Source of the DNA: a virus
Taxonomy: Duplodnaviria > Caudoviricetes
IMG/VR virus record: IMGVR_UViG_3300031949_000035
Coordinates: 1-61,516 of that record
Direction: 5' to 3' (one strand)
Length of the DNA: 61,516 nt
Part shown: one piece after another, positions 30,204 to 52,313 of the stretch
Numbering within the stretch: position 1 is the stretch's first letter
Layout: the number at the start of each line of letters is the position of its first letter
Made by a program: the position numbers and the translations under genes
Notes under the pieces: generated by a model
Seen by the model: the letters and a program-made list of their open reading frames with translations, nothing else
What the model was told of the DNA's origin: nothing
The model's database searches: none

Positions 30204-30265
30204 CGTGGAAATAACCGGCTGACGCGGTTTCTTCGCGGCAGTCCGTGTTGATTGTAGGGTTAGGC
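30198..30265 (-). other. attC-like site 1
   Basis: CCATAAC...hairpin...GTTAGGC. Confidence 0.85.
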
Positions 30266-30297
30266 ACTCACCCTTGACGAGTGCGCTGGAGTAAAAC

Positions 30298-30450
30298 ATG
30301 AAAAAAATGATTTGTCATATCATAGCTTGGCTTGTTCAGTTCGCGGATAAGTATGCTTGTGAAACTTATGATAACAAAGCAGAACTTTCAAGCGGGCCGT
30401 GCGCAAGATGTGTTGGTCAAGAAGTTCGCGGGCCACAGAGCAGTGCCTAA
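30298..30450 (+). CDS. Cassette-borne 50-aa protein (MKKMICHII...)
   Basis: GGAG SD; cassette ends GTTAGGCACT / AGTGCCTAAC. Confidence 0.6.
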   Translation: MKKMICHIIAWLVQFADKYACETYDNKAELSSGPCARCVGQEVRGPQSSA

Positions 30451-30501
30451 CGTAGAAATCACCTGCCGCCGAAGGCGGTCAGGTGGATTGACGGGTTAGC
30501 C
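30445..30501 (-). other. attC-like site 2
   Basis: GCCTAAC..ATCACCTG-CCGCCGAAGGCGG-TCAGGTGGAT..GTTAGCC with extrahelical G. Confidence 0.9.
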
Positions 30502-31107
30502 ATAGCGCTGATGAGCCTGACGGGTATCAACAAGGTGCTTAAGAAAATCTTTGCCGTACTGGGTGATGTCAATTCGGTCTGCAACAAACGTAACAAGGTT
30601 GCTATTGAGTGGATACGAAAACCATTCCTCGAATTTCCTTCCCCCGTGAAGGTCTGGATATTCCTTCTGGGCCTGCTCGAAGGTGGCGTTGGCTTCTTGC
30701 CTTGTTATTCCGTTTTTTGTGCCGGAAATTTGAATTAGGAGCGCGACTTGACTACCAAAAATAGTGTGGGCAATGTTGTTGAACTCAAACTCAATTCGTG
30801 TGATTGCGAAAACACGAACAAGGGCGGCTATTTTTTCGCTATCTGTCGCCAAGCCAAGAGAGTGAATTTGTTTATCAACAAACTGCTCTCTCTCCAATGC
30901 GGTAGGAGACATCGGGTGTTTCATGATCTCTACGAACGGCAGAGGAGCGGGTTGCAACTCAGCCCCTTCTTGAGAGCGCTCGAAGGAAACGCTGTCTTTG
31001 GTGGCACTGGTAATGCCAGCGATCTTTTTAACTATCGCGGGCTTGAATTCTCGAATGGCGACCAAGCCAAGGAGAAGGGCTACTGCGGGCCAAATAAATA
31101 TGTCCAT
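30496..31107 (-). CDS. Cassette gene in canonical orientation; N-terminal TM plus winged-helix-like C-terminus
   Basis: 203 aa; IFGSQ..LL and IT.YG.DFL; ends GTTAGCCATA / TATGGCTAAC. Confidence 0.8.
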   Translation of the reverse strand: MDIFIWPAVALLLGLVAIREFKPAIVKKIAGITSATKDSVSFERSQEGAELQPAPLPFVEIMKHPMSPTALEREQFVDKQIHSLGLATDSEKIAALVRVFAITRIEFEFNNIAHTIFGSQVALLIQISGTKNGITRQEANATFEQAQKEYPDLHGGRKFEEWFSYPLNSNLVTFVADRIDITQYGKDFLKHLVDTRQAHQRYG

Positions 31108-31115
31108 ATATGTAT

Positions 31116-31178
31116 GGCTAACGTGGAGTTAACCGGCTCCGCGCTTTTGCGGAGTCCGGGTTGAACGGCGGGTTATGC
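31116..31178 (-). other. attC-like site 3
   Basis: GGCTAAC...GTTATGC hairpin. Confidence 0.9.
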
Positions 31179-31202
31179 CCCGTCTTAAATAAGGAGATAA
31201 AT

Positions 31203-31490
31203 ATGAGTAAGCCATACCCGGCACTATGCAAGGATTGCCGGCATGCAGTGCCGGAAGTGGGGAACGAGTGGAATTTGAGATGCCATCACCCAACTGTAAA
31301 TGCGCGTGATTCGTGGACACTGGCCTGTGGAAAAGGAAATGGCTCTGCTTGCCATGCGGAGCGCGAAAAGGGGTTTTTCTCCGCGTGTGGTATGAGTGGG
31401 AGGTTGTGGGTGGCGAAGGGGCATAACGCCGTGTTGAGCGGCGCGGGCGATTTTTGCCCGGTCGGTGTCGATCCGTTGGTTATAGAATAG
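31203..31490 (+). CDS. Cys-rich cassette protein reading through attC 4
   Basis: AGGAG SD; CKDCRH; ends GTTATGCCCC / GGGGCATAAC. Confidence 0.7.
   Translation: MSKPYPALCKDCRHAVPEVGNEWNLRCHHPTVNARDSWTLACGKGNGSACHAEREKGFFSACGMSGRLWVAKGHNAVLSGAGDFCPVGVDPLVIE
31421..31485 (-). other. attC-like site 4 (degenerate)
   Basis: GCATAAC...GTTATAG, imperfect stem. Confidence 0.65.
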
Positions 31491-31554
31491 GTTTCAATGA
31501 TCTATTATCAGGACCAACACATATTATTAGGGGTGCGCCCCGGGGAGGAATGTA

Positions 31555-31812
31555 ATGGGAATGTTTGACTATGTACATTTTGAAATGGATTGCCCAAAGT
31601 GCAACGCCAAAATAACAGACTTTCAATCGAAGGATAAAACTTGCAAAATGGAAACAATAGAGCCTGACTCGCTAATTAGCTTCTACAGTTCGTGTAAATG
31701 TGGAGCGTGGGTTGAGTTTCGCAGGCCAAGGCCAAAAATATCGCCGCTACGAGATACCGCTCTTACGCCGGATGAAGTGGCAGCTATGGGGTTCGTGATG
31801 GATGTGGTCTGA
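31555..31812 (+). CDS. Zinc-ribbon hypothetical protein
   Basis: MGMFD..CPKC....FQSKD phage motif. Confidence 0.75.
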   Translation: MGMFDYVHFEMDCPKCNAKITDFQSKDKTCKMETIEPDSLISFYSSCKCGAWVEFRRPRPKISPLRDTALTPDEVAAMGFVMDVV

Positions 31813-31837
31813 AATTCAAACAACGGAAGGGACTCGA

Positions 31838-32293
31838 ATGAAACTCACGGAACATTTTACCGTAGAAGAAATGACACATTCCGAGGCGGCAATCAGGCGG
31901 GGGCTTGACAACGCTTGCCCGGATGATTTGAAGGCAAATATGCAGCGGGTAGCTGATGCGCTTGAGGTAATCCGCGCCCACTACAACGCACCAATCCACG
32001 TTACAAGCTGCTATCGAGCGCCGGAGGTAAACAAGGCCGTGGGCGGTTCTCCGACAAGCGCCCACCGCTTTGCAAGCGCTGCGGACTTTGAAGTTTCGGG
32101 TGCTCAAAATATTGATGTATGCCGCAAAATCGCTGAACTACTGCCGGATTTCGACCAGATCATATATGAGTTTGGCCCTGCCGGCTGGGTGCATCTCGGA
32201 TTCACAGATAAAACTCCGAGAAAACAGTTGCTTTCCGCGGTCAAACGTAATGGCAAAACCGTACGTACTCCGCTCACGGACGCCAAATTCTAA
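31838..32293 (+). CDS. Peptidase M15A family endolysin candidate
   Basis: LTEHF..EEM..S, TS.YR...N.AVGG..TSAH....AAD, FDQ.IYE, WVH. Confidence 0.9.
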   Translation: MKLTEHFTVEEMTHSEAAIRRGLDNACPDDLKANMQRVADALEVIRAHYNAPIHVTSCYRAPEVNKAVGGSPTSAHRFASAADFEVSGAQNIDVCRKIAELLPDFDQIIYEFGPAGWVHLGFTDKTPRKQLLSAVKRNGKTVRTPLTDAKF

Positions 32294-32311
32294 TTTTAAG
32301 GAGGGATAAAA

Positions 32312-32569
32312 ATGATCGAACTTGGGGACAGAGTGAAGGACAAAATTTCAGGACTCAAAGGGATTGTGGTCGGCATTTCTAACTATTTATATGGATGTAA
32401 GAGGGTAAGCATCCAGCCGGAAGAGGCAAAAGATGGCAAGCCTGCGGAGTGGTACACTGTGGATGAACCTCAGCTTGAAATTGTAAAAAAGTCTGTGGTT
32501 TCTGGTAGAGATACACCTACACATGGACCAAGGGAGAATATACAACATAGGAAAGATGCAAGAAGATAA
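32312..32569 (+). CDS. Hypothetical SH3-like protein
   Basis: LGDRVKD.ISG..GIV.....LYGC phage motif. Confidence 0.75.
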   Translation: MIELGDRVKDKISGLKGIVVGISNYLYGCKRVSIQPEEAKDGKPAEWYTVDEPQLEIVKKSVVSGRDTPTHGPRENIQHRKDARR

Positions 32570-32619
32570 CGTTTAATTGAGGCGCGGCGTAGCCGTCGCG
32601 CTCGAATGATGGGTTGGGC
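32564..32619 (-). other. attC-like site 5
   Basis: AGATAAC...GTTGGGC hairpin. Confidence 0.85.
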
Positions 32620-32645
32620 GGAACGTAACTACGAAGAAAGGAAGC

Positions 32646-32954
32646 ATGATGGCAGGACTGATACCAGAGACAATTACCAGATTACAGGCTATTGCGTTTG
32701 TGCGAGACGCCGAACTTGAAGCGATAGGGCGCGACCGAATCATTCGCGCAAGCGCCGAACAGATGGCCGAACAAGCGTTGCACAAGATGCTGCGCGACTG
32801 CATCAAGACTGAAGGCGATTATATGGGCTACCAAGGACAGACGTTGCGCCTTGATGCGTACGTGCTAGCACCAGATGAACTGCATAAGATGCTCGCGGAA
32901 GCGAGAATGCAGGGAGAGCACGATGCTATGCGATGGGTGACGCCCAACGTGTAG
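32646..32954 (+). CDS. Cassette hypothetical protein
   Basis: Ends GTTGGGCG / CGCCCAAC. Confidence 0.7.
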   Translation: MMAGLIPETITRLQAIAFVRDAELEAIGRDRIIRASAEQMAEQALHKMLRDCIKTEGDYMGYQGQTLRLDAYVLAPDELHKMLAEARMQGEHDAMRWVTPNV

Positions 32955-32988
32955 GTAAGGCGCGCCGCGCTTCACCGTAAGGTTATAC
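32942..32988 (-). other. attC-like site 6 (short, internally deleted)
   Basis: GCCCAAC...GTTATAC, 47 bp. Confidence 0.65.
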
Positions 32989-33005
32989 GTCTTTTTGAGG
33001 ATAAT

Positions 33006-33290
33006 ATGAAAACATTGTGTAATTTTTGCAGCTCCCAAACATCTAATGGCAAAGGCTCCGTTGAATGCGGAAAGTCTGTGTTTGTCCGTGATGAATATGG
33101 AAATCACAAACAAGGTGCGGCGTGCATACATGACAGCGACCTGAAAGATTTTTTTATGACGAGAACCGGGCATGAAATTAGCATACACAACTTGTCATCC
33201 ACGATCGAACGGCAAAGCAATGACCTGATGAAGGCGCGGGATAAAATTACCGCACTGGAAAACAGGCTGGTAAAAGTTGGTGACGTATAA
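33006..33290 (+). CDS. Cassette hypothetical protein
   Basis: GAGG SD; ends GTTATACGTC / GACGTATAAC. Confidence 0.7.
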   Translation: MKTLCNFCSSQTSNGKGSVECGKSVFVRDEYGNHKQGAACIHDSDLKDFFMTRTGHEISIHNLSSTIERQSNDLMKARDKITALENRLVKVGDV

Positions 33291-33406
33291 CGCAAAATTA
33301 ACCAGCGGTGCGCTCACTGCACCCGAAACGGAGAAATAACATGGATAAATCACTGAACGTAAAAACCCCCGCTGGCGCACCGTCTGCGTTGAATGTAGGG
33401 TTGGGC
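33285..33406 (-). other. attC-like site 7 (long, holds RBS and ATG)
   Basis: GTATAAC..CGGTGCGC...GCGCACCG..GTTGGGC; GGAG plus ATG 33341 in the loop. Confidence 0.8.
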
Positions 33407-33547
33407 ATCGGAACTTTATTTGCTCTTGCTGGATGTTCAGGCGCTACCGGGAACATCACCGCGATCGATCCAACAGAGCGCGGATTATCGTATGCGGCCG
33501 CTGCCATTGTCACCTCCGCAGTAATTAAAGCGATATGCAACAAGTGA
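33341..33547 (+). CDS. Small putative lipoprotein starting inside attC 7
   Basis: LFALAGC lipobox-like motif. Confidence 0.55.
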   Translation: MDKSLNVKTPAGAPSALNVGLGIGTLFALAGCSGATGNITAIDPTERGLSYAAAAIVTSAVIKAICNK

Positions 33548-33650
33548 TGCCAACGCAAAGTTGAGCACCAGCCAACAGCGCGAAGGAAAACTATTAATAA
33601 TACTAAAAATGACCCCTCTGTTGGCTGTGCGCTCGAACGCCGGGTTATGC
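33548..33650 (-). other. attC-like site 8 (long)
   Basis: TGCCAAC..CAGCCAACAG...CTGTTGGCTG..GTTATGC. Confidence 0.85.
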
Positions 33651-34468
33651 CCCTCACGCTGTGGCATGGGGATTGCCTCGATTTGATGGCACAGATACCC
33701 GATGCGTCGGTAGATATGATCTTGTGCGACCTGCCCTACGGAACGACCGTCTGCAAATGGGATACGGTGATACCTTTTGAGCCGCTTTGGGCGCACTACA
33801 AACGCGTGATTAAGCCGAACGGGGCGATATTGCTCCTTGCGCAAACCCCCTTTGATAAGGTTTTGGGGGTAAGCAACCTGCCGATGTTGCGGTATGAGTG
33901 GATATGGGAAAAAACGGCGGCCACCGGCCACCTGAACGCCAAGAAGATGCCGATGAAGGCGCACGAGAACGTCTTGGTGTTCTACTCTCAGTTGCCGAAG
34001 TACAGACCGCAGAAAACAACAGGGCATAAACCCGTGAACAGTTACACAAAACACCAAGACGACGGCGAATGCTACGGAGCAACCATGATTGGTATCAGTG
34101 GCGGTGGAGCGACTGACCGCTACCCTCGGAGCGTATTGCAGTTTCAGAGCGACAAGCAAACCTGCAGCCTTCACCCAACTCAGAAGCCTCTGGCACTGAT
34201 TGAGTACATGATCCGCACCTACACTGACGGAGGCGAGACGGTTTTGGATAATTGTATGGGTAGCGGAACTACGGGCATCGCGTGCCTGAATACAGGGCGC
34301 AACTTCATCGGAATAGAAAAAGACCCAAAATACTTTGAGATTGCACGGAATAGGATTGAGGGGCATAACGTTCAAATTGAGGGGCAGGCCGCTCTGGCCT
34401 GTCCCTCTCGAATGCAGGGTTGGGCTCTGCGAAAAGTGAGAAATGAAACTTATAATGAACAGATTTAA
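33647..34468 (+). CDS. N4-C/N6-A DNA methyltransferase (beta class), cassette
   Basis: GDCL, DLPY, HPTQKP, DNCMGSGTT; ends GTTATGCCCCTCA / TGAGGGGCATAAC; reads through attC 9. Confidence 0.92.
   Translation: MPLTLWHGDCLDLMAQIPDASVDMILCDLPYGTTVCKWDTVIPFEPLWAHYKRVIKPNGAILLLAQTPFDKVLGVSNLPMLRYEWIWEKTAATGHLNAKKMPMKAHENVLVFYSQLPKYRPQKTTGHKPVNSYTKHQDDGECYGATMIGISGGGATDRYPRSVLQFQSDKQTCSLHPTQKPLALIEYMIRTYTDGGETVLDNCMGSGTTGIACLNTGRNFIGIEKDPKYFEIARNRIEGHNVQIEGQAALACPSRMQGWALRKVRNETYNEQI
34363..34425 (-). other. attC-like site 9
   Basis: GCATAAC...CAGGCC-GCTCT-GGCCTG...GTTGGGC. Confidence 0.9.
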
Positions 34469-34525
34469 CGATGAAGACGACGGATGGGATTACGATCCAT
34501 CCATACCTGATGATGGGTGGGGAAA

Positions 34526-35023
34526 ATGAAAACCCCCGCCAAACTTAAACAAGAATCTCGATGGGTGGAATCTGATGTAGTTTACACTCCAGACCATATT
34601 GCTGAGTGGATAGTAAACTATTTTAAACCACAAGGTTTATGCCTTGACCCTTGTAAAGGTGGTGGAGCATTTTATAATAAATTCCCCGGTGAAAAGGACT
34701 GGTGCGAAATCAGAGATGGTAGGAACTTTTTTGACCATACAACAAAGGCAATCTGGATTATCACAAACCCGCCATTTACAAATATAGAGCGATTCATGGA
34801 ACATTCATTTTCTCTGGCCGATAATGTGGTTTTCTTATTGCCTGCACATAAAACATTTTCTTCATGGGCGCGAATCCGGCTCATAGAAGCCTATGGCGGG
34901 ATTGTAACAATCTTATTGGTAAAAGGTCAGCAGTGCCAATTCCCTTTCAGATACCCTTATGGAGTATTTCACTTCCAGAAAGGATATAATGGCGGCACAC
35001 TGATACAGAACTGTGAAGCCTAA
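34526..35023 (+). CDS. Small amino-methyltransferase (NPPF), cassette
   Basis: YTP, LDPCKGGGAF, ITNPPF. Confidence 0.85.
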   Translation: MKTPAKLKQESRWVESDVVYTPDHIAEWIVNYFKPQGLCLDPCKGGGAFYNKFPGEKDWCEIRDGRNFFDHTTKAIWIITNPPFTNIERFMEHSFSLADNVVFLLPAHKTFSSWARIRLIEAYGGIVTILLVKGQQCQFPFRYPYGVFHFQKGYNGGTLIQNCEA

Positions 35024-35077
35024 CGGCAAGGTAAGAGGCTCGCCGTAGGCGAGTCCTGCTTGACCGTTAGGTTAGGC
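35018..35077 (-). other. attC-like site 10
   Basis: GCCTAAC...CTCGCC-GTA-GGCGAG...GTTAGGC. Confidence 0.9.
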
Positions 35078-35098
35078 TGGTTTTTATTGGAGACGAAG

Positions 35099-35281
35099 AT
35101 GTGAAAAGAAATACGCATAGAAATTTGCTGGGGATGGATAGATTGGATTTGCTCCAAAAAACGCTATGGTGTACGGATTCAATCTTTCTGGATCGGAGCA
35201 AGCCTGCCGATACCGAAGCGCGATTTTGATAAGCGCGAAAAGTCGATGAAGGAATGGCTAAAAACTATGCGTGATGCCTAA
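35099..35281 (+). pseudogene. Cassette ORF with TGA at codon 2
   Basis: GGAG SD, ATG-TGA, then 58 open codons (KEIRIEICWGW...MRDA) ending at the attC TAA. Confidence 0.6.
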
Positions 35282-35339
35282 CGTTTGAATTAAGGGGTAG
35301 GCCGCTTTTGGCCTGTCCCTCTTGAATGAGGGGTTCGAC
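35276..35339 (-). other. attC-like site 11
   Basis: GCCTAAC-6-ATTAAGG...CTTGAAT-5-GTTCGAC, bottom-strand layout on the + strand. Confidence 0.9.
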
Positions 35340-35361
35340 CCCGATACTACGGAGAACGGTT

Positions 35362-35733
35362 ATGGGATGGAGCATTGGCTACGACACAAACTGGAAGCGC
35401 GACATAGGCTATGGTGTACCGGCTTATTGTGACCATCCAGGCTGCAATGAAGTCATTGATCGCGGATTGAGTTATGTTTGTGGTGGTGAGCCTTTTGGTG
35501 GGGAACATGGCTGCGGTTTGTACTTTTGTGGGAAGCACACCACTTACCACGAAACGCGGGGAAGTGTTTGCGCGCCATGTGCAGATAGAAGGAAAAAGCC
35601 ATTTGAAGCCAAGCCAGACCATCCTGATTGGATAAAGTGGAAACTAACTGATGAAAGTTGGCGGCAATGGCGGGACGAGAACCCTGATGCAGTAGCGAAA
35701 TTAAAGGGGTCGAACGTAAAGTTAACCGGCTAG
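35362..35733 (+). CDS. Cys/His-rich cassette protein
   Basis: RDIGYGVPA.CDHP.C...IDRGL...CG; ends GTTCGACCCC / GGGGTCGAAC. Confidence 0.8.
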   Translation: MGWSIGYDTNWKRDIGYGVPAYCDHPGCNEVIDRGLSYVCGGEPFGGEHGCGLYFCGKHTTYHETRGSVCAPCADRRKKPFEAKPDHPDWIKWKLTDESWRQWRDENPDAVAKLKGSNVKLTG

Positions 35734-35775
35734 CCGGGCTTTATCGGCTAGTCCGAGTTGAACGCCGGGTTATGC
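35709..35775 (-). other. attC-like site 12
   Basis: GTCGAAC...CTAGCCG..CGGCTAG...GTTATGC. Confidence 0.9.
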
Positions 35776-35791
35776 CGGTTTTGAGGTAAAT

Positions 35792-36495
35792 ATGAAATCA
35801 ATTGCTGGAACACTTGCTGCACCATTTCCGTATTTTGGCGGGAAAGCGAACGCTTGCGAATTGGTGTTTGGGATGGTGAAAAGATTGTTGACCGCCGCAA
35901 GCTCCCGCATCTTGGTGACGCTGGGCGGGGCATCAACCGCCAGCTCCCGCATCTTAGCGCTGGGCGGGGCGAATACATCGCGGAGTGGTTCAACCTGCTA
36001 CATGCGCGCCTTCGTGATGTGCGGGTAGCCTGCGGCGATTGGCAGCGGGTGTGCAAAGATAGCGTGACCACGCGTCACGGCTTGACGGGTATCTTTCTTG
36101 ACCCGCCATACGATAAAGGCGCGATGGACTACGGCGCTGGTGGCATGGGGCAAAATATATCATCATCGGTGAGAGAGTGGTGCGCGGATAACGGCGATGA
36201 TCGGCAATTGAGGATCGTTATTTGCGGACACGCGGGGGAACATGACGACCTACTAAAGATAGGCTGGAAACTGCACAAGTGGACGGCTCGTAAAGGGTAC
36301 GCTCTGACCGACGAAGCAAAAGAAAACTCAGCCAGCGAAACGGTGTGGGCTTCGCCGCATTGCCTGCACAAGAAAAACGAACAGGGCGGATTGTTTGATA
36401 TTTCCGACACGCCACGCGATGCTTACGAGCAAACAGACTTCATAGCCAGTGCGCTAGGGGTGGGGCATAACCAGTTATTAGACAGTTGGGAATGA
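35792..36495 (+). pseudogene. Dam/D12-class adenine methyltransferase with internal deletion and frameshift
   Basis: PFPYFGGK in one frame, IFLDPPY in another; motif I (EPF.G) region absent. Confidence 0.8.
36465..36484 (-). other. attI-like simple site at the head of array 1
   Basis: Minus strand TGTCTAAT-AACTG-GTTATGC: L box, 5-bp spacer, core; no hairpin. Confidence 0.6.
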
Positions 36496-36505
36496 TTTAA
36501 AAGTC

Positions 36506-36534
36506 TTGACATTTACTCTTTCTTATGGTATAAA
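36506..36534 (+). promoter_or_regulatory. sigma70-like promoter pointing away from the attI-like site
   Basis: TTGACA-17-TATAAA. Confidence 0.65.
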
Positions 36535-36959
36535 AGAGGTATCCCCGTGTGAAACCCCCCTTCTTACACATATCGTTAACAAATGCTCACCCCTACAAGA
36601 ATCGTGCCATTAACGTTTTAATTCTATAAGTATTTTAATTGGCTATCTAAAACAAAGATTTATATAAAAAAGCAGGTTAATCACAGAACTACCCACCGCA
36701 CGTTCCCAAAACCGGAACGCGCAATATGTATATGCTTCTGCAAAAAAACTACCATAGCCTTCTTGCCTACCACTGTAGCCGCAATATTAAAAAGAAAATT
36801 ATTGCAGGCATTGTTATAAAATAAAGAGGTTAAAATAATATTCCAAATAGTATAAAATCTATGCTTAGTTGAAAATTGGGGAGAGGTTAAAATAAGCTCC
36901 CCCCTTTTTCTATCGCCTGCCCCTGTATAAACCCCCCCCCTGTTTCCGGGGTGTGGGGG

Positions 36960-37180
36960 TGGGGGGGCGACATGGCCTGGCTGGGTAAGAGGTGGGGGCT
37001 TTGCTATGCATGGCATGGCCTGACAAGGCAAGGCTGAGTAAGAGGTCTTTGATAGACATGGCCTGGGGGACTATGTGCATGGCCTGGGGGGTAAGAGGTG
37101 TGCTTTGTGAGCTGATAGGCTAGGCATGGCCAGGGAGGGGAGGAAAAAGTTGATAGGTAGGTATGGGTAGGGGGGAGAAA
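36960..37180. repeat. G-rich interspersed short repeats downstream of terS (candidate packaging/terminus region)
   Basis: CATGGCC x5, GTAAGAGGT x3, GATAG x3. Confidence 0.7.
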
Positions 37181-37210
37181 GTGCGTTGTGGGGCATCCTG
37201 GAAGTTTTCC

Positions 37211-37759
37211 CTACTCCTCTGCCCCATCCGGCTGGGGCAGGTCTTGCTCCTCTATGGCCGTGCCGATGCTAATGTTAAGTGGCTCAAAAGGAGCTGTAAC
37301 TTGTTGTTTTTTCAGGCTTATCAGCATCTCAGAAAAGCTTTGGACTTGGACATTAGCCGTGGATTCCCCCTCCTCTAGTCGGCGCATCTTAAAAAGAGAT
37401 TCCAAGACCTGCACCGCCTCCTTATACGTAATTTCTTCAGCTTTTTCCTCCAAAAGGCTTAATTTATTAAGTGCTAGGCTTAAAGTTTTAAGCTCTGTAC
37501 CCCTCAAAAAGTCGGCGCAATGTTTGCGATAATAGTCTAAATCAACTTTTGCGGGTAATTTTTCAACGCATTTTCTAATGGTGGTATGTAAACGGGAGAC
37601 GGGTACTCCTTGGGAGTCGGCGATTTCTTGGTAAGTTTTCCCTTGGGCGCGGAGGTGGAGAGCTAGGGGGAGGTCCACTTTTTTTCTTTCTAGGTTTTTT
37701 TCTGGTGCTTGGGCGTCTGGGTGCCCCTCTGCTGCGTCTTGGTTGAGTTTGATATCCAT
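37211..37759 (-). CDS. terS: Terminase small subunit-like HTH protein
   Basis: LRAQGKTYQEIA...GV HTH and RRLEEGESTANV C-terminal motif; start uncertain (ORF open to 37888). Confidence 0.65.
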   Translation of the reverse strand: MDIKLNQDAAEGHPDAQAPEKNLERKKVDLPLALHLRAQGKTYQEIADSQGVPVSRLHTTIRKCVEKLPAKVDLDYYRKHCADFLRGTELKTLSLALNKLSLLEEKAEEITYKEAVQVLESLFKMRRLEEGESTANVQVQSFSEMLISLKKQQVTAPFEPLNISIGTAIEEQDLPQPDGAEE

Positions 37760-37996
37760 GTATGGGGGGGCCTGAGATCGTGCGCTGTGGGCGATTGTAG
37801 CCCGGGTTTTTTTGGGATTTTGTAGTGTAACATTTTTGGTACTATTTTGCAAGCAGTTTTTTTGACAATTTTTGGTCTGAAGTGACATTTTTTTGGTTCA
37901 TTTTGCAACAATTTTTGGTATTTTTGGTTTTGGCTTTTGGGTGGTAGTGGGGGGAAAAGCCCTTTAAAATCAAGGAGTTACGATATTTTTAAGTTT

Positions 37997-38012
37997 TGGT
38001 ATGGGTTGTGCA
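37997..38012 (+). promoter_or_regulatory. sigma54-like -24/-12 promoter for early genes
   Basis: TGGTATGGGTTGTGCA has canonical GG-N10-GC spacing. Confidence 0.45.
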
Positions 38013-38029
38013 TACTATATATATAAGAG

Positions 38030-42815: not shown

Positions 42816-42818
42816 CCA

Positions 42819-44541: not shown

Positions 44542-44559
44542 CCGCAATTGCTTTATACT
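44531..44559 (+). promoter_or_regulatory. sigma70 promoter
   Basis: TTGACA-17-TATACT. Confidence 0.75.
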
Positions 44560-44585
44560 TATAAATAAATTCAAGGGATAGCAAA

Positions 44586-44792: not shown

Positions 44793-44821
44793 AAACAAGG
44801 TAAATTGAGGAGAATAGGGAA

Positions 44822-45490: not shown

Positions 45491-45530
45491 CTTGAGAAAT
45501 AATTTAACTCTGTTTTAGGAGGAAGTTGAA

Positions 45531-46115: not shown

Positions 46116-46163
46116 CTATGAAAATATGGCGGCAATGTGCATATTGTGGAGAGATCACAAATT

Positions 46164-46550: not shown

Positions 46551-46765
46551 TTTGCATGGACTGTAAACGTGAAGTTAAATATTTTCCAAGGGAAGGAGAG
46601 TTGCAGGCAATTTTGATTGAGTCTCCTCCACCTGGGGCAAGTGGAAATAGTATTTATAATTGCGAGGTATGTTATAACGCGCCGCTGACCGCAAACCCGG
46701 TCGAGGCATACGAAAAAGTGAAGGAGTTATTAGACCGGCGCGACCTTACGCGCTGTTTTTATTAA
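46547..46765 (+). CDS. CxxC hypothetical protein
   Basis: ATGA overlap. Confidence 0.55.
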   Translation: MICMDCKREVKYFPREGELQAILIESPPPGASGNSIYNCEVCYNAPLTANPVEAYEKVKELLDRRDLTRCFY

Positions 46766-46787
46766 TTCTTTATAATGTAAGTCTGAA

Positions 46788-46850
46788 GTCTAACTCTCCG
46801 CTTGAGGGGCGCGACTGAAAGGAGCGTCCCGCTCGAAGCGGTTGTTATGT
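46788..46850 (-). other. attC-like site 13
   Basis: GTCTAAC...GTTATGT. Confidence 0.85.
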
Positions 46851-46999
46851 TTCAAACAAACTATGCGTTTTCTGTCTCTATGAGCCTCCCCAGGCGGGGG
46901 ATAATCAGTGTGCAGAGAAATCACCTGATTTACAAAACGAGGCGACATCACCAACGCGCCTATCTACACATGACGGCTGGCCGATCCAGCCTCCTAAGA

Positions 47000-47087
47000 A
47001 GATAACGCCGTGCTGAACCGCACGGGAACAGACAAATGCCAAAACCGACCGCGCTTATTCCGTGTCGGTTCGAGCAGATTGTTAACA
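47000..47087 (-). other. attC-like site 14
   Basis: AGATAAC..TGCTGAACCG...CGGTTCGAGCA..GTTAACA. Confidence 0.85.
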
Positions 47088-47101
47088 CTTTTTGTTATTT
47101 T

Positions 47102-47178
47102 GCGGAGGTAGTTTAATTGGTAGAACAGTTGACATTCCAGTTAACCAGTGGCGGTTCAAACCCGACCTCTCCGCTCCA
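47102..47178 (+). tRNA. tRNA-Gly(TCC)-like element, non-canonical, overlapping the Mom-like gene start
   Basis: Acceptor GCGGAGG/TCTCCGC-T-CCA, D arm, TTCAAAC T loop; anticodon loop of 6 or 8 nt and a T-stem mismatch. Confidence 0.6.
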
Positions 47179-47722
47179 ATATTTCATAGAGCCAGTGAGA
47201 TACGAAGCAGCGAAAGCCTTTGTTGAGCATTGGCACTATTCAAAGAGGATGCCAACAGGGAAAAACATCTGCTTTGGATTGAGAAGGGCTGGCGAAATGT
47301 ACGCGGTGATAGTTTACGGCATAGGCGTGAATCCGTATCAGGCGCAGTTTTTAGGCGTGAAAGAGTGCATGGAAATAAAAAGGATGTGCCGGAGAGAGCC
47401 GAAAGAAGACTATCCTCTTTCACGGCTGATTAACCTGACGACAAAGATGCTGAAGAAGCAGGAGAGTTTTCAGGCTGTTGTGGCTTTTGCTGACCCGGAG
47501 CAAGGGCACGAAGGGACAGTCTACAAGGCCGCAGGATACGAACACAAAGGGATGAGCAACGCAGAGTGGCATCTTGAAGACGAAGACGGCAACAAGAGGC
47601 ACAGGCGATTTGCTTTCAGAATGGCAAGACGGAACGGTATTTCTGTTTCTGAGGCAAGAGATCAGTTAAACGTAAAAAGAGTGCAGACCGCCCCGAAGCA
47701 CAGATGGGTGAGGTTTGTATGA
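47117..47722 (+). CDS. Mom-like adenine-modification (GNAT-fold) protein, cassette
   Basis: HWHYS, EIKRM, FADP.QGH.GTVYKA.G; ends GTTAACACT / AGTGTTAAC; start uncertain. Confidence 0.85.
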   Translation: MVEQLTFQLTSGGSNPTSPLQYFIEPVRYEAAKAFVEHWHYSKRMPTGKNICFGLRRAGEMYAVIVYGIGVNPYQAQFLGVKECMEIKRMCRREPKEDYPLSRLINLTTKMLKKQESFQAVVAFADPEQGHEGTVYKAAGYEHKGMSNAEWHLEDEDGNKRHRRFAFRMARRNGISVSEARDQLNVKRVQTAPKHRWVRFV

Positions 47723-47726
47723 AGAG

Positions 47727-47785
47727 TGTTAACGTTAAATTAAGGGGCGCGCTTTAGCGCGTCCCGCTTGAATGAAAGGTTAGAC
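47727..47785 (-). other. attC-like site 15
   Basis: TGTTAAC..ATTAAG...CTTGAAT-5-GTTAGAC. Confidence 0.9.
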
Positions 47786-48043
47786 ATGAGAATTAAACAA
47801 TGTCACCCAGCATGGCCGCAACATGCGTCTTTCAGTTGCCCGACTTGTGGAAGTTTATATCAAGACGGGGATGAATATGATGAACATTCATACGGGCCAG
47901 ATGACGGTGAAAGCATGGCTCAATGTTTGCGGTGTAACAACGGGTTTATCGTGCGGAGAATTGTTACCGTAACTTACCACACCGAGAAACCCGGCAATAA
48001 AATACCTGTTGTTGTCATACGCCGGGATCATAAAGATGCCTAA
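47786..48043 (+). CDS. Zinc-ribbon cassette protein
   Basis: CPTCG and CLRC..F.V.R.V...Y. Confidence 0.7.
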   Translation: MRIKQCHPAWPQHASFSCPTCGSLYQDGDEYDEHSYGPDDGESMAQCLRCNNGFIVRRIVTVTYHTEKPGNKIPVVVIRRDHKDA

Positions 48044-48096
48044 CGACAAGCTAAGCCGCCGCGCTTTTTGCGGTCGGCTTGAGCGATTTGTTAAGT
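48038..48096 (-). other. attC-like site 16
   Basis: GCCTAAC..CTAAGCCG...CGGCTTGAG..GTTAAGT. Confidence 0.9.
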
Positions 48097-48102
48097 ATTT
48101 TT

Positions 48103-48315
48103 TTATTTATCATCGGATTTTTGATTTTCTCCGAAATTTAAATTTAATGGTTGTCTTAATTCAATTTGAAAGGATGCATCAGACCATGAATTTTTACCAT
48201 AATCAATCGTTGAAATTGTGGCTTTATATGTTTCATTTGCGGCATCAGAAATAGCTTTTGCAATAATGGACTCCATTTGTTGAACAGAAATAGATTTTAA
48301 TTTATTTTCAAACAT
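48103..48315 (-). CDS. AT-rich cassette hypothetical protein, canonical orientation
   Basis: 70-aa ORF inside the GTTAAGT / ACTTAAC cassette. Confidence 0.6.
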   Translation of the reverse strand: MFENKLKSISVQQMESIIAKAISDAANETYKATISTIDYGKNSWSDASFQIELRQPLNLNFGENQKSDDK

Positions 48316-48343
48316 AATTAATTTCTTTTCAGGAGGTATAAAA

Positions 48344-48562
48344 ATGACGACCGCCGATGCAGTCGAATTTCACAAAATTATGAAGTATCTTAGTATTTAT
48401 TATCCTATCAATTCGATAAACAGTGATACGGTTTATGTTTATTTTGATGCCCTTTCCGAATATAAAGTTGAAGATATTTATAAAGCGGTAAAGTTATATA
48501 TTAAAAAAGAGACAAAATTCCCCAGTGTTTCTGAGTTGATTTCTTATTTATGTCGAACTTAA
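48344..48562 (+). CDS. G39P-like helicase loader/inhibitor N-domain, cassette
   Basis: AGGAGG SD; YF.AL..Y....I..AV...IK..T.FP.VSEL. Confidence 0.65.
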   Translation: MTTADAVEFHKIMKYLSIYYPINSINSDTVYVYFDALSEYKVEDIYKAVKLYIKKETKFPSVSELISYLCRT

Positions 48563-48619
48563 CGATAAGCTCACCAGTTGCCAGGTTTATTGGCAATCTG
48601 GTGGAGCGCCTTGTTAGGC
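48557..48619 (-). other. attC-like site 17
   Basis: ACTTAAC..CTCACCAG...CTGGTGGAG..GTTAGGC. Confidence 0.9.
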
Positions 48620-48636
48620 GCAGAAAGGATTGACAA

Positions 48637-49131
48637 ATGAACAAAACTATGAGGACTATAGATAAAGAAGGTGGAGCGGCTGTTGGCTCGACCGATTTGT
48701 TAGCCGAATTGACGGAGCGGCGAAGCAAGTTCGTATATGATGCCGCCCGACTCGCCGCACAAGCTGCCAACGCACCAATAATCCCCGTGCCGTGGGACGA
48801 GCGCGAAGAACCTTTCCAGGTACAATTCCGAAAAGTCATAGACCGGCAATGCGGAGAACAGCGCTCTCGCTCACCGGAAGAACTACACGGTAGCTGGATG
48901 CAGGCATACTTCGGGATGGGCTGGGTGTTCGGAACTGAATACAGCCGCGAGAACAAGACGCATCCAGACCTCGTACCATACGCAGACCTTGGCCAACTCG
49001 AACGAGATAAAGACGCTGTGTTCGTGTCTCTCTGCGAGATTGCGCGCCAATGGGTGTATTCAGCTAACTCTCCGCATGAGCGCGCCGCCGAAGGCGGTCC
49101 GCTCGATGCGGTGGTTGTGCGTCAAACGTAA
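48637..49131 (+). CDS. RyR-domain-like phage protein; both termini attC-encoded
   Basis: H.SWM......GW..G and KTHPDLVPY.DL...E..KD; half attC at about 48672-48705. Confidence 0.75.
   Translation: MNKTMRTIDKEGGAAVGSTDLLAELTERRSKFVYDAARLAAQAANAPIIPVPWDEREEPFQVQFRKVIDRQCGEQRSRSPEELHGSWMQAYFGMGWVFGTEYSRENKTHPDLVPYADLGQLERDKDAVFVSLCEIARQWVYSANSPHERAAEGGPLDAVVVRQT
49062..49120 (-). other. attC-like site 18
   Basis: AGCTAAC...CCGCCGAAGGCGG...GTTGTGC. Confidence 0.9.
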
Positions 49132-49144
49132 CTACGGAGTGAGG

Positions 49145-49900
49145 ATGAATGAGTTGGCACTTTTTGCAGGAGCAGGCGGAGGCATCTTGGGAGGGCACTT
49201 GCTTGGATGGCGCACCCGATGCGCTGTTGAGATTGATGCCTACTGCCGAAGCGTGCTGCTCGCCCGCCAACGCGACGGACTGCTGCCAAGATTCCCGATT
49301 TGGCACGGCGTGCGAACATTCGACGGAAAGCCTTGGCGCGGGCGAATTGATGTTGTCTCCGGGGGCTTCCCGTGCCAGGACATCAGCGCAGCCGGCAAGG
49401 GCGCAGGACTCAGCGGAGAGCGCAGCGGATTGTGGGGAGAAATGGCCCGCATCATTGGCGAAGTACGACCGCTGTACGCGTTCGTGGAGAACTCGCCAAT
49501 ACTCACTTCTCGGGGGCTTGGACGAGTTCTGGGAGACTTGGCCGAAATGGGGTTTGATGCGCGGTGGGGAGTGCTGGGCGCGCGACACGTTGGCGCATGC
49601 CACCGACGCGACCGGCTTTGGATTTGTGCCAACCGTGCTGACATCGGAAGCGACGGGGCCTGGCCTACATGGGAACGGGAGCCACAATTTCCGAACGTGG
49701 TTTCGAGAGAACAGCACAGAGCGCAGGTTGCCGCTGCACGGGGAACTTATGATGCTATGGCCGGTGGGCTGGGCAAGCGCTGGAGAGCAATTGGAAATGG
49801 ACAAGTTCCGGCAGTGGCAGCGGCAGCATGGCGGATTTTGACGCACAACGCCAAGGGTGAGCGGCGGCATTATCGCCCGCTCGACCCGTTGGTTAGGTAA
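49145..49900 (+). CDS. C5 cytosine DNA methyltransferase (alpha chain), cassette
   Basis: LFAGAGG, GGFPCQD, FVEN, H.R.R, AIGNGQVP; ends GTTGTGCGTCAAA / TTTGACGCACAAC. Confidence 0.92.
   Translation: MNELALFAGAGGGILGGHLLGWRTRCAVEIDAYCRSVLLARQRDGLLPRFPIWHGVRTFDGKPWRGRIDVVSGGFPCQDISAAGKGAGLSGERSGLWGEMARIIGEVRPLYAFVENSPILTSRGLGRVLGDLAEMGFDARWGVLGARHVGACHRRDRLWICANRADIGSDGAWPTWEREPQFPNVVSREQHRAQVAAARGTYDAMAGGLGKRWRAIGNGQVPAVAAAAWRILTHNAKGERRHYRPLDPLVR
49149..49841 (+). CDS. Overlapping +1-frame polypeptide carrying a motif IX-like segment (beta chain)
   Basis: 230 open codons; LPLHGELMMLWPVGW resembles motif IX, which the main frame lacks. Confidence 0.65.
   Translation: MSWHFLQEQAEASWEGTCLDGAPDALLRLMPTAEACCSPANATDCCQDSRFGTACEHSTESLGAGELMLSPGASRARTSAQPARAQDSAESAADCGEKWPASLAKYDRCTRSWRTRQYSLLGGLDEFWETWPKWGLMRGGECWARDTLAHATDATGFGFVPTVLTSEATGPGLHGNGSHNFRTWFRENSTERRLPLHGELMMLWPVGWASAGEQLEMDKFRQWQRQHGGF
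49843..49898 (-). other. attC-like site 19
   Basis: GCACAAC..GGGTGAGCGG...CCGCTCGACCC..GTTAGGT. Confidence 0.9.
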
Positions 49901-49917
49901 ATACTATGTTGTGGCGA

Positions 49918-50127
49918 TTAACCTTTTTTAGTTATTCCAGCGGAGGGATATTTATTTTGCAACATTGCAATAGACTCATCTCGAAATTTTTGAATGTCAT
50001 TGTCTGTAAGTGTTCCTGGCGGGGCGACACTCAAAAGTCTATCAATAACTTTTTCCAAAACGTTGATCCTAAACTCAACGTCAATAACAGAATTAGCAAT
50101 ATCAATACCGCCGACCTGTATTCCCAT
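49918..50127 (-). CDS. Cassette hypothetical protein, canonical orientation
   Basis: GAGGTG SD; 69 aa. Confidence 0.7.
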   Translation of the reverse strand: MGIQVGGIDIANSVIDVEFRINVLEKVIDRLLSVAPPGTLTDNDIQKFRDESIAMLQNKYPSAGITKKG

Positions 50128-50133
50128 AGTGAT

Positions 50134-50475
50134 TCACCTCGTATCAGTGGTAATAGTTGGAATCTTCAAATTGGCCCCGATATTCCCAGATTTTATATAT
50201 TTTTCGTAGATAGCGGCTGCGACCAAGGAGGCAATAACCCCTAAGATAAATGTACAAATCAGAGAGTAAACAAACCGAGAGGTTTTTGACCACCACGGAG
50301 GATAATAAGCCATTCTCCACGTTACATTATTACATGAAGGGCATTCGATAGGAGTGCCTTCAGAAATGTCAGTTACTCTCATTTCTTTAGAGCACTTAGG
50401 GCAAGGCATATCGTATTCTACAGCCTTTTTGACTACTAATTTTGGCCCATTAAAAATGGATGGTATAGTTGGCAC
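50134..50475 (-). CDS. Zinc-ribbon plus TM cassette protein, canonical orientation
   Basis: CPKC, CPSC, one TM helix; GGAG SD. Confidence 0.7.
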   Translation of the reverse strand: MPTIPSIFNGPKLVVKKAVEYDMPCPKCSKEMRVTDISEGTPIECPSCNNVTWRMAYYPPWWSKTSRFVYSLICTFILGVIASLVAAAIYEKYIKSGNIGANLKIPTITTDTR

Positions 50476-50513
50476 TAACGCAGCTCCATATTTACTATGA
50501 ATCTATTTTTGGA

Positions 50514-50576
50514 ATCTAACGACCCAAGTTGAGCGGAGGCACCGCAGGTGACTTCCGCTCGAACGACTGGTTAGCC
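50514..50576 (-). other. attC-like site 20
   Basis: ATCTAAC..GTTGAGCGGA...TCCGCTCGAAC..GTTAGCC. Confidence 0.9.
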
Positions 50577-50612
50577 GACGAACCGAAAACTTAAACCATA
50601 AGGAGAAGAAAG

Positions 50613-51215
50613 ATGGAGTTTCAGGGATTTCCGAAGATTGCCCGCCTCAGCCGGGAGTGCATTATCACCGAAAAGATTGATGGGACCAATACCCAGGTCT
50701 GCATCCAGGTGTTGCCTGATGATGCGGTTATGCCTACCGATACGCCCATTGTCGCAGTGCGCGGGAATCTACTGATCTATGCGGGGTCCCGAACCCGATG
50801 GATTACGCCCAAGGATGACAACTACGGTTTTGCGGGATGGGTAGAGCGGAACGCCGTTGAACTCGCAAAACTAGGCGAAGGGCATCACTTTGGGGAATGG
50901 TGGGGATGCGGAATCCAGAGGAGATACGATCTCAAAGAGAAGCGCTGGAGCCTGTTCAACGTGTCCCGCTGGAACGGGGAGGATCGCCCCGCTTGCTGCG
51001 ATGTGGTCCCGACAATTTACAAGGGTGATTTCACCAATGATGCCGTGACAAATGCGATTGAAGACCTCCGAACCAATGGTAGCAAAGCATCTCCAGGTTT
51101 TATGAATCCCGAGGGAATCGTTGTTTATCACACGGCTGGACGAATGTATTTCAAGAAGACCATCGAGAAGGATGAAGAACCAAAGGGTAAATGGATGGCT
51201 GAAAGAGTCGGCTAA
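50613..51215 (+). CDS. RNA ligase family nucleotidyltransferase, cassette
   Basis: FPKI, TEKIDGTN (motif I), DNYGFA, FGEW, PEGIV; ends GTTAGCCGAC / GTCGGCTAAC. Confidence 0.88.
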   Translation: MEFQGFPKIARLSRECIITEKIDGTNTQVCIQVLPDDAVMPTDTPIVAVRGNLLIYAGSRTRWITPKDDNYGFAGWVERNAVELAKLGEGHHFGEWWGCGIQRRYDLKEKRWSLFNVSRWNGEDRPACCDVVPTIYKGDFTNDAVTNAIEDLRTNGSKASPGFMNPEGIVVYHTAGRMYFKKTIEKDEEPKGKWMAERVG

Positions 51216-51261
51216 CGACCCAAGTTGAGCGGAGGCACCGCAGGTGACTTCCGCTCGAACG
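51210..51261 (-). other. attC-like site 21 (copy of site 20, right core lost)
   Basis: 51212-51261 identical to 50516-50565. Confidence 0.8.
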
Positions 51262-51297
51262 CCGTATTACGAAGACCGATTTTTGAAAGGGATGAAG

Positions 51298-51678
51298 ATG
51301 GAAACGAAAAACGCAGTGATTGAAAGCGCCCGCATCACCAGCGACGACCACGGCTGCTTGTGCGCCTGGCTGATGCTTGATTACGGCGGCAGCGGCCAAG
51401 GGTTCGGCGGCTACGCGCTGTACCTGCCGAAGAGCTTTACGCATCACAAGATGGAGAGCGTGGCGGGGCATTTCATTTGGCGCGTAATGGAGGTTGCAGG
51501 CGTTACCGATTGGGACAAGCTCAAGGGCAAAACCATCCGGGTGCGAGGCGACCGCGGGTGTATTGAAGCGATTGGGCACGTCGTCAAGGACGACTGGTTT
51601 TGCCCGCGTGAAGACTTCGCGGACAAGGCGGCTAACGTAGAGGTAAGGGGTCGCCCGCTTTTGGGCGATCCCTCTTGA
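51298..51678 (+). CDS. Cassette hypothetical protein
   Basis: NA.I.S......DHG, QGFGGY, W..L.GK..RV phage motifs. Confidence 0.75.
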
Positions 51679-51692
51679 CCGCCGGGTTAGGC
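51630..51692 (-). other. attC-like site 22
   Basis: GGCTAAC...TCGCCC..GGGCGA...GTTAGGC. Confidence 0.9.
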
Positions 51693-51712
51693 GGTTTTAA
51701 CTGGAGATAAAG

Positions 51713-52006
51713 ATGTCAAATTGTGAATATGTGCGTGAATATTATGAAGTGCCAGCAGAGATAGGCAGGCGTGTCGTAGTTAGCGGAAAGGCTGGAATTA
51801 TTGCCGCTGACCGTGGGCATTACATCGGCGTGAACTTTGACGTAGACAAGCCGGGCGTAATTTGCAACTGCCATCCGACAAGTAAGGTGGAGTATGGCGA
51901 GATTGGGAAGATTCGCAAAATGACGCGCAGCCAAGAGAATTATCGGCGATACCTTGATCTTGACTGTGGATTCCCATTCGCAGAATGGATGGGGTTTAAG
52001 GCATAA
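51713..52006 (+). CDS. Cassette hypothetical protein
   Basis: YVR.YY.VPA.IGRRV and HPT motifs; GGAG SD. Confidence 0.75.
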   Translation: MSNCEYVREYYEVPAEIGRRVVVSGKAGIIAADRGHYIGVNFDVDKPGVICNCHPTSKVEYGEIGKIRKMTRSQENYRRYLDLDCGFPFAEWMGFKA

Positions 52007-52063
52007 CGTGTAGCTCAAGGGCGGGCGGCTTTTCGCCAGTCCGCGTGGAACTATGGGTTAGGC
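52001..52063 (-). other. attC-like site 23 (degenerate stem)
   Basis: GCATAAC...GTTAGGC. Confidence 0.7.
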
Positions 52064-52082
52064 ATAACTTTAAGGAGAAAAC

Positions 52083-52313
52083 ATGAACGTACACGGAGTT
52101 GAAATAACCGACGAACAGCAAAATGCCTGCATTGTGGCGATGGAAAAGCGATTCAAAGCCAGCGATATTGAACTTGTGGCGATACAGGCAGGAGTACCTC
52201 GTTACCATAATAGGAATGATATTGCGCATAGAGTTGCTGACCGACTCATTCAGCGGCAGCGCAAGACTGGGGCAATTAAGAGGGACGGGAAGCACTGGTT
52301 GCCTAACGCATAG
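52083..52313 (+). CDS. Cassette winged-helix-like small protein
   Basis: R.ADRLIQR.RK.G.I; ends GTTAGGCA / TGCCTAAC. Confidence 0.7.
   Translation: MNVHGVEITDEQQNACIVAMEKRFKASDIELVAIQAGVPRYHNRNDIAHRVADRLIQRQRKTGAIKRDGKHWLPNA

Follow-up and report, generated by a model that had tools for sequence, protein, structure and literature searches.

The locus and its attC sites

The 61,516-base window analyzed here is the whole of an IMG/VR virus record (IMGVR_UViG_3300031949_000035; Duplodnaviria, Caudoviricetes), which is linear, approximately 64% complete according to CheckV, and without terminal repeats, and in which two arrays of gene cassettes and attC sites of the integron type are found. The left 26 kb, on the - strand, encode the terminase, the portal/adaptor, virion proteins, and a DNA-ejection protein, and the rightward genes begin at around 28.4 kb, behind a sigma-70 consensus promoter (28341-28369, +, with a 12/12 match) that points into the operon ending with array 1, and which may be the promoter that drives it. 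The two arrays sit at the 3' ends of two rightward operons, 10 kb apart and with phage genes on all sides. Together, they contain 24 attC sites, all on the + strand, 12 of them at 30198-35775 and the other 12 at 46788-52366, of which 21 were recovered by a covariance model and three, all of them long, by fold and by eye.

This model, known as R1, was built from an alignment of 16 hand-picked sites of the window, which was then searched with the filters off; a first site screen, based on a regular expression and folding, had proved to be too strict and noisy, and the model was used in its place. At E<0.01, R1 detected 21 sites, all on the + strand and all within 30198-35775 or 46788-52366, with none elsewhere in the 61.5 kb and with a score on the opposite strand of no more than 13 bits at the same sites. 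The architecture found is that of attC, i.e., a hairpin with imperfect pairing, in which AAC and GTT lie in the outer R boxes, with inner L boxes and a variable loop. In this alignment, 93.7% of the stem cells are paired, in comparison with 75.2% in the shuffles, changes on both sides are present at 8 of the 15 stem pairs, and the covariation score was reached by none of the 500 shuffles, while the pairing of the slid controls falls to 32-49%. Three single-base bulges are present, all of them on the 3' arm of the + strand.

In array 1, the R1 scores were 56.9 bits for attC1 (30198-30265), 46.7 bits for attC2 (30445-30501), 75 bits for attC3 (31116-31178), 24.1 bits for attC4 (31421-31485), which is read through by the open reading frame (ORF) 31203-31490, with a stop just past the GTT box, 56.7 bits for attC5 (32564-32619), and 31.5 bits for the short attC6 (32942-32988). 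The long attC7 (33285-33406, 122 nt) was recognized by its fold, given that R1 reaches only 13.8 bits over 33352-33406, and its loop contains the start codon of its own cargo ORF (33342-33547), an arrangement conserved together with the cargo in one other contig, L139. Another long site, attC8 (33548-33650, 103 nt), was identified by fold and by eye, with a weak R1 score, and it is followed by attC9 (34363-34425, 66.5 bits), attC10 (35018-35077, 65.6 bits), attC11 (35276-35339, 66 bits), and attC12 (35709-35775, 62.4 bits).

Array 2 begins with attC13 (46788-46850, 48 bits) and with the third of the long sites, attC14 (47000-47087, 88 nt), recognized by its fold, which has only 9.7 bits in R1 and a cognate pairing of 6 extra bases with the next site. 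The sites that follow are attC15 (47727-47785, 64.3 bits), attC16 (48038-48096, 52.4 bits), attC17 (48557-48619, 53.1 bits), attC18 (49062-49120, 38.4 bits), into which the ORF 48637-49131 (+) runs, attC19 (49843-49898, 44.8 bits), attC20 (50514-50576, 39.1 bits), attC21 (51210-51272, 22.6 bits), attC22 (51630-51692, 74.3 bits), attC23 (52001-52063, 36.3 bits), and attC24 (52301-52366, 65.4 bits). The attC20 and attC21 sites have near-identical bodies with different outer boxes and different cargo, a combination that does not decide the phasing of the units. A first-pass annotation of the window, made from the letters alone, had described only GTT and AAC as invariant; a non-consensus core is present at attC11, and the triplet itself is not strictly invariant, given that attC21 has ATT in the place of GTT.

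Complementarity of the cassette ends

An integron integrase would insert each cassette as a circle, by means of a single-strand exchange inside the conserved triplet, and an attC within an array would then be a hybrid, in which one outer box belongs to the neighboring cassette. Because each inserted circle would leave hybrid sites of this type, the GTT-side flank of one site should pair with the AAC-side flank of the next. The first-pass annotation had claimed precisely that the GTT end of one attC matches the AAC end of the next, usually better than its own, and this claim was borne out when the contiguous complementary bases beyond the triplet were counted between the GTT-side flank of each site and the AAC-side flank of the one that follows, in the 22 neighboring pairs. 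The cognate pairs had a mean of 4.55 bases, against 1.0 for the two flanks of the same site (n=24) and 1.16 for all other pairs (n=529), and the observed mean was reached in 0 of 100,000 permutations, so that the cognate ends are far more complementary than the random pairings. The cognate pairing was better than that of the own flanks in 18 pairs, equal in two, and worse in two, which means that the outer box of a site pairs with the far box of its neighbor, and not with its own, as in the hybrid sites of an integron cassette array. All nine of the pairs that had been offered as examples are perfect reverse complements at their stated coordinates, a check by coordinates only, with the first number of each pair taken as where the GTT word begins and the second as where the AAC word ends. 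The estimate of about 20 units was generous, however, as four or more extra bases were found in 13 of the 22 pairs.

The reconstituted sites also fold better than the in-array hybrids, as the same annotation had anticipated. With DNA parameters, the sites reconstituted by a cut at G|TT on the + strand were 3.4 kcal/mol more stable than the hybrids (18 of 22 better, two worse), and those reconstituted by a cut at AA|C on the + strand were 4.0 kcal/mol more stable (17 of 22 better, four worse), while the random-flank controls gave -0.01 and -0.24 kcal/mol, respectively, and the best of their 200 replicates gave -0.96 and -1.19 kcal/mol. Neither the complementarity nor the folding can choose between the two phasings, because both use identical end pairs.

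The recombining strand

The phasing may be approached through sites whose orientation is known. Against the aadA1 attC of plasmid R100, R1 scores 45.6 bits on the strand opposite aadA1 and 8.2 bits on the coding strand. In the phage TJE1, the attCs of which are recombined by IntI1, according to the passages of PMC9892861 on these sites, R1 matches three sites, with 26.7-30.3 bits, on the - strand, while the TJE1 genes are on the + strand. A likeness to sites recombined by IntI is thus found in both aadA1 and TJE1. In two viral records that bear both attC sites and an integron integrase (465.7 and 450 bits, above the curated cut-off), the position of the R1 strand relative to intI is that of the canonical layout. 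In classical integrons, it is the bottom strand that recombines, inside the AAC triplet, and a feature of attC is that bases bulge from the arm that faces AAC, as set out in sections of Nivina et al. (2016, PMC5027507).

Because of the strand calls on aadA1, TJE1, and the two intI records, R1 can be said to read bottom strands, and, therefore, the bottom strand of the window is the + strand, on which the exchange would occur at AA|C (G|TT on the - strand). In terms of their sequence, the sites of the window are true attC sites, for which recombination by an integron integrase is predicted. The first-pass annotation had placed the cut at G|TT on the + strand, with each gene before its own attC, and this part of it has to be reversed, given that the strand calls, the homology with foreign contigs, and a joint between two AAC boxes all favor AA|C on the + strand.

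Unit boundaries and array ends

When both arrays were compared by blastn with 170 fetched loci, 19 pairwise alignments with foreign contigs were available, and in all 19 of them, the similarity starts at the AAC triplet, with an unrelated left flank before it. In most of these alignments, the identity crosses the attC body and the GTT and reaches 10-40 bases into the leader of the + ORF. Among the 67 high-scoring segment pairs that cover a site, an extension of at least 8 bases was found rightward in 16 and leftward in 10 (Wilcoxon p=0.014), and the longest leftward extension is that of the L139 unit itself. A complete unit is common to L139 and the window at approximately 82% identity, beginning at the TAAC of attC7 and extending to the AAC of attC8, after which the identity drops.

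Variation of the same type may be seen in the only public run found with this DNA, in which one Logan contig passes directly from 35020 to 36468, where the two sides share four letters. This joint omits exactly cassettes 10-12, from the AAC box of attC10, which forms its left side, to the AAC box at the array end. In the contigs of this run, there are also loose ends at 47741 and 48566, where the same attC bodies stand behind other left flanks. The cassette is, then, the unit of gain and loss, with its boundaries in the triplet, as found in the L139 unit, the 19 left boundaries, and the one weak joint. Each mobile unit is an attC followed by a gene, and the cargo is inverted relative to that of bacterial integrons.

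With these boundaries, array 1 comprises 12 cassettes (attC, then cargo) at 30204-36470 (+), from the C of the attC1 AAC up to and including the AA of the AAC box that terminates the array (its AAC lies at 36469-36471), beyond which there is no attC body. This terminal box (36462-36471, +) can pair over 8 bases with the GTT box of attC12, and the DNA beyond it is not of the attC type; the box lies where attI would lie in an array of reversed polarity, and it looks like the junction of a first cassette. Array 2 comprises a further 12 cassettes at 46794-52469 (+), starting at the C of the attC13 AAC, and its right end is uncertain, as position 52469 is only a candidate, based on a weak AAC box (52468-52470) at the same position as the stop codon of an ORF of 22 codons.

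The cassette cargo

The cargo of the two arrays includes a Peptidase_M15_3 protein in cassette 4 (31802-32293, +; Pfam 2.2e-21), which has three + ORFs, an N6/N4 DNA methyltransferase (N6_N4_Mtase) in cassette 8 (33647-34468, +; Pfam 2e-26), with blastn similarity to phage methylase genes, a Mom-family protein in cassette 14 (47117-47722, +; Pfam 1.1e-33), and an RNA ligase family protein (RNA_ligase) in cassette 20 (50613-51215, +; Pfam 1.6e-09). A RyR-domain protein is also found among the family-supported cargo on the + strand, and a C5 cytosine methyltransferase-like gene in cassette 18 (49149-49841, +) is based only on blastn to annotated phage genes, with no Pfam match. Every cargo ORF supported by a family is on the + strand, i.e., the R1 or bottom strand. 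Judging by eye from the ORF lengths and the ribosome-binding sites, around 19 cassettes have + cargo, two (cassettes 2 and 19) have cargo on the - strand only, and there is also one mixed case, with two or three others undecided. In cassette 2, the cargo, which has no family match and is taken from the ORF list, is in the bacterial orientation (30496-31107, -), and in cassette 19, the other case with - cargo only, the ORFs listed are 50134-50475 and 49918-50127 (-). The classical layout, with the cargo on the top strand and read from the attI side, was not found here.

In cassette 12, what appears to be a methyltransferase-like gene is split over the overlapping frames 35792-36028 and 35854-36495 (region 35792-36495, by eye), with short direct repeats near 35886-35975; the longer frame (35854-36495) had no match in Pfam, and 35895-36254 has a 68% blastn match in the locus L119.

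For one cargo protein, of 97 residues, 30 relatives are present in viral contigs. R1 was applied to 31 of the 32 loci obtained for the relatives of two cargo proteins (L329 was left out), and attC-like matches were found in one (L308), on the strand of the gene. Because these matches are present in only 1 of the 31 loci, the family of this 97-residue protein is mostly an ordinary phage gene.

Cargo polarity in other viral and bacterial loci

An IUPAC pattern derived from the sites was found in at least 117 stretches of IMG/VR, and R1 had 245 matches at E<0.001 in the first 80 of these loci. When 49 attC-bearing IMG/VR records were searched whole, two contained an integron integrase, 15 were at least 90% complete, and three had direct terminal repeats; the number of R1 matches per record was 1-11 in these 49 records, against 21 in the window. 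In the two records with an integrase (locus L114 of record G043, at 57-2940, and locus L106 of record G025), the integron integrase adjoins the attC arrays, and the family-supported cargo is on the R1 strand, with Mom and methyltransferase proteins in one, and DHH and DUF7736 proteins in the other. The cargo of G043 reads towards intI, in the same direction as intI itself.

In bacterial genomes, the same pattern was found in at least 120 stretches, which, among the matches listed, were mostly in Betaproteobacteria and Methylococcales metagenome-assembled genomes (MAGs), and R1 returned 212 matches. A crude test was made of the strand of the longest ORF between neighboring sites, relative to the R1 strand. 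In the viral loci, this ORF was on the same strand in 83 cases, on the opposite strand in 28, and ambiguous in 52, whereas in the bacterial loci (best 150 matches), it was on the same strand in 11 cases, on the opposite strand in 54, and ambiguous in 22. Fisher's test of this contrast gives p=3.9e-14, with the reservation that the loci are not independent and that "viral" is the label given by IMG/VR. The test is also noisy, as the window itself scores 12/4/6 (same/opposite/ambiguous) and TJE1 scores 1/1.

Sites of this attC type are frequent in MAGs and genomes of the Nitrosomonadales, Burkholderiales, Rhodocyclaceae, and Methylococcales (loci L178-L257), a distribution that is a hint as to the hosts of these phages, but no proof. 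In the complete viral record L005, a 60-bit attC match (10732-10795) lies no more than 9 bases after a PAPS-reductase-like gene, a relative of that at 28432-29184 of the window, and a second match is present at 7861-7946, so the gene may be cassette-borne in that record.

The remainder of the record

A search with TIGR02249, the integron-integrase profile, returned zero candidates in the 61.5-kb record, and there was no signal of a tyrosine recombinase either, in a record which is approximately 64% complete and may have a distant intI; ordinary tyrosine recombinases were detected in 14 of 14 control genomes. No intI, attI, or cassette promoter (Pc) was found beside the arrays, and the record does not contain a complete integron. 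In Rfam, no family matched the attC-type sites, and the only match of the whole window at gathering level was a borderline tRNA at 47103-47174 (+; 29.6 bits against a gathering score of 29), which overlaps the start of the Mom-family ORF; ARAGORN found zero tRNAs in the window.

Relatives of the phage were sought through several of its genes. The relatives of the PAPS reductase (51 loci) share only that gene, and R1 attC-like matches were present in two of these loci. The terminase search returned a single relative, at 37% identity, while the neighboring 134-aa protein had zero relatives in metagenome contigs. The blastn of both arrays against GenBank phages returned only similarities at the level of genes (methylases and RNA ligase), with no common array.

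Other features of the record include a 0.7-kb non-coding stretch after array 1 (region 36480-38000) with many G runs and short repeats, a repeat of around 33 bases upstream of three + genes between the arrays (at approximately 38030, 38840, and 39350), both observed by eye, and a 2179-codon ORF (54930-61469, -) that nearly reaches the right end of the record.

Interpretation and alternative explanations

With at least two attC sites in each array and no integron integrase found nearby, the two arrays correspond to clusters of attC sites lacking integron integrases (CALINs). The analysis shows that the sites are attCs with a hybrid signature, which strand of them recombines, where the units begin and end, and that they are set in a phage genome, all of which is best explained by two phage CALINs of 12 + 12 attC sites, in which hybrid sites were formed by circle insertion, with exchange at AA|C on the + strand and units that begin with the attC, a reading to which a probability of around 85% can be given. 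In this scheme, the mobile unit would be composed of the C, the attC body, the GTT, a leader, and the gene, and would end in AA, with the exchange at AA|C on the + (bottom) strand. The recombination would be performed by an integrase of the host, or by one encoded in the missing part of the phage genome, the cargo would be read through from phage promoters, and the exchange of cassettes may still be ongoing.

A number of points weigh against this reading. R1 is derived from the sites of the window itself, and the three long sites score poorly in it, while 9 of the 22 neighboring pairs have fewer than four extra bases and 4 of the 22 are not above their own flanks. No integrase, attI, or recombination product is demonstrated, in a record that is incomplete (64%). 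The joint is a single contig, with a depth of 5 and 26 letters on its shorter side, and the run, which is kept as contigs, is probably the source sample of the record, so it offers neither independent support nor information on depth, and the stretches that it leaves uncovered do not count as evidence. The array ends are not fully explained either, since the 67-codon ORF 30000-30203, to the left of attC1, is flanked by a 7-base inverted GTT/AAC pair with no attC body, and is either a degraded thirteenth cassette or the product of chance, and no convincing cognate box was found outside either end of array 2. No close phage relative that would show an empty site was found.

The most direct alternative is that the gene precedes its attC, as in bacterial integrons, with the + strand as the top strand and the crossover at G|TT on this strand. 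The + strand holds most of the ORFs, and many ORFs terminate within the AAC-side box of the following site, as is often the case in bacterial cassettes, the reconstitution at G|TT improves the fold (by -3.4 kcal/mol on average, in 18 of the 22 sites), and the ORF 30000-30203 would be a complete first cassette, with its GTT box at 29997. This phasing is nevertheless disfavored, and would be quite improbable, given that the aadA1, TJE1, and two intI loci place the bottom strand on the + strand, that the homology with other contigs breaks at AAC and not at GTT, and that the only joint seen links two AAC boxes; the array would also have to end in a cassette with an attC cut exactly after its AAC box. 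It is somewhat less improbable, though still unlikely, that the arrays are fossils, assembled by a past integrase in an ancestor or another replicon, and now inherited as phage genes with no exchange. This would fit with the zero integrase candidates of the record, the decay of several cognate pairs (9 of 22 with fewer than four extra bases), the loss of GTT at one site, and the ORFs that have grown through attC sites. Most of the sites nevertheless keep a full and well-paired structure, a whole unit is common to an unrelated contig at approximately 82% identity, the contigs of the run have the same attC body behind other left flanks (47741, 48566), and, as a weaker point, this run seems to contain, alongside the full array, a variant in which exactly three cassettes are missing.

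Terminators, REP-like elements, or regulatory RNA hairpins, with an end complementarity that would be derived from a palindromic consensus, were also considered, as the sites lie between genes and 4 of the 20 calls of a terminator scan overlap attC sites. This possibility is refuted by the permutation test and the cross-matches: a palindromic consensus would not leave the own flanks no better than random (1.0 against 1.16) with the cognate flanks far better, R1 cross-matches canonical and experimentally validated attCs, most of the sites have no following T run, and no Rfam family matches at the sites. The proposal of the first-pass annotation that the units are mobile circular cassettes, and not terminators or REP elements, is upheld by the cognate pairing, these cross-matches, the covariation, and the gain in folding. 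Nor does it seem at all probable that the record is a chimera of the assembly, or that phage DNA has been joined in it to part of a bacterial chromosomal integron, even though this is a metagenomic contig with no terminal repeats and sites of the same type are frequent in bacterial MAGs, predominantly those of the Betaproteobacteria. The arrays are 10 kb apart with phage genes on all sides, they carry phage-like cargo (Mom, methyltransferases, RNA ligase, and M15 peptidase), the polarity of this cargo is that of the viral loci and not that of the bacterial ones, and among the 49 other viral records with attC sites, a completeness of 90% or more is reached by 15, including three that have direct terminal repeats.

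Once the two arrays are taken as phage CALINs, a broader proposal can be made, for and against which the odds appear to be even. Phages may keep their own pool of cassettes, with the attC first, the gene on the recombining strand, and phage genes as cargo (Mom, methyltransferases, and RNA ligase), which would be swapped by the IntI of the host or the phage during infection. The reversed polarity would thus be systematic and selected, rather than an accident of one genome. One possible benefit is that phage promoters could drive the expression of the arrays in the direction of the insertion end, and another is that transcription would leave the recombining strand single-stranded.

Comparison with known systems

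Phage CALINs have been published by Qi, Rajabal, Ghaly, Tetu and Gillings (2023, PMC9892861), who, in the account of their survey, found 17 CALINs of at least two sites in 10,705 NCBI phage genomes. As described in parts of that paper, these are also attC arrays without IntI, found in both temperate and virulent phages, and also have DNA methyltransferases in their cargo; the phage attCs described there are recombined by IntI1, and R1, although built from the window, finds the TJE1 sites. In TJE1, however, the genes are opposite the bottom strand, in the canonical layout, whereas in the window they are on the bottom strand, and the passages of that paper considered here make no mention of reversed cargo. 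Full-text searches of the literature for reversed cargo in phage arrays found none, which is not proof of its absence. The arrays of the window make up a very large phage CALIN, with 21 to 24 sites, in comparison with the 1-11 found in the 49 other attC-bearing IMG/VR records.

With the classical integrons, as characterized in portions of PMC5027507 and PMC4889954, the window shares the architecture of the sites, the bulges opposite AAC, the exchange in the triplet, the hybrid sites, and the cassette as the unit of mobility. On the other hand, classical integrons have intI, attI, and Pc, none of which was found in the record, and they are read from the attI side, whereas the window has its cargo on the recombining strand, with the array read in the direction of the attI-side end and with genes drawn from the phage gene pool. 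The end complementarity is a known signature of integron cassette insertion, and it is the reversed polarity of the cargo that is a departure from the integrons described. The group of integrons with an inverted integrase, which is presented in a section of Cury et al. (2016, PMC4889954), is distinct from an inversion of the cargo. The insertion of integron cassettes outside att sites, shown for bacterial genomes according to the summary of bioRxiv 10.1101/2022.09.11.507474, offers, by analogy, a possible route for the arrival of a first cassette in a phage at a bare GTT/AAC, which would fit the end of array 1.

The end complementarity mainly certifies the 24 units as real mobile cassettes. 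Around a fifth of the phage genome is made up of swappable cassettes with DNA-modification and other accessory genes, in a polarity opposite to that of bacterial integrons. The AA|C junctions on the coding strand constitute a concrete prediction, which can be tested both in reads and at the bench. Should the contrast between the viral and bacterial loci be maintained once proper gene calls are used, integron recombination would be a general route by which phages trade counter-defense and accessory genes, and the rule that the orientation of the cargo is fixed by its expression from Pc, as in the integrons of bacteria, would not cover the viral pool.

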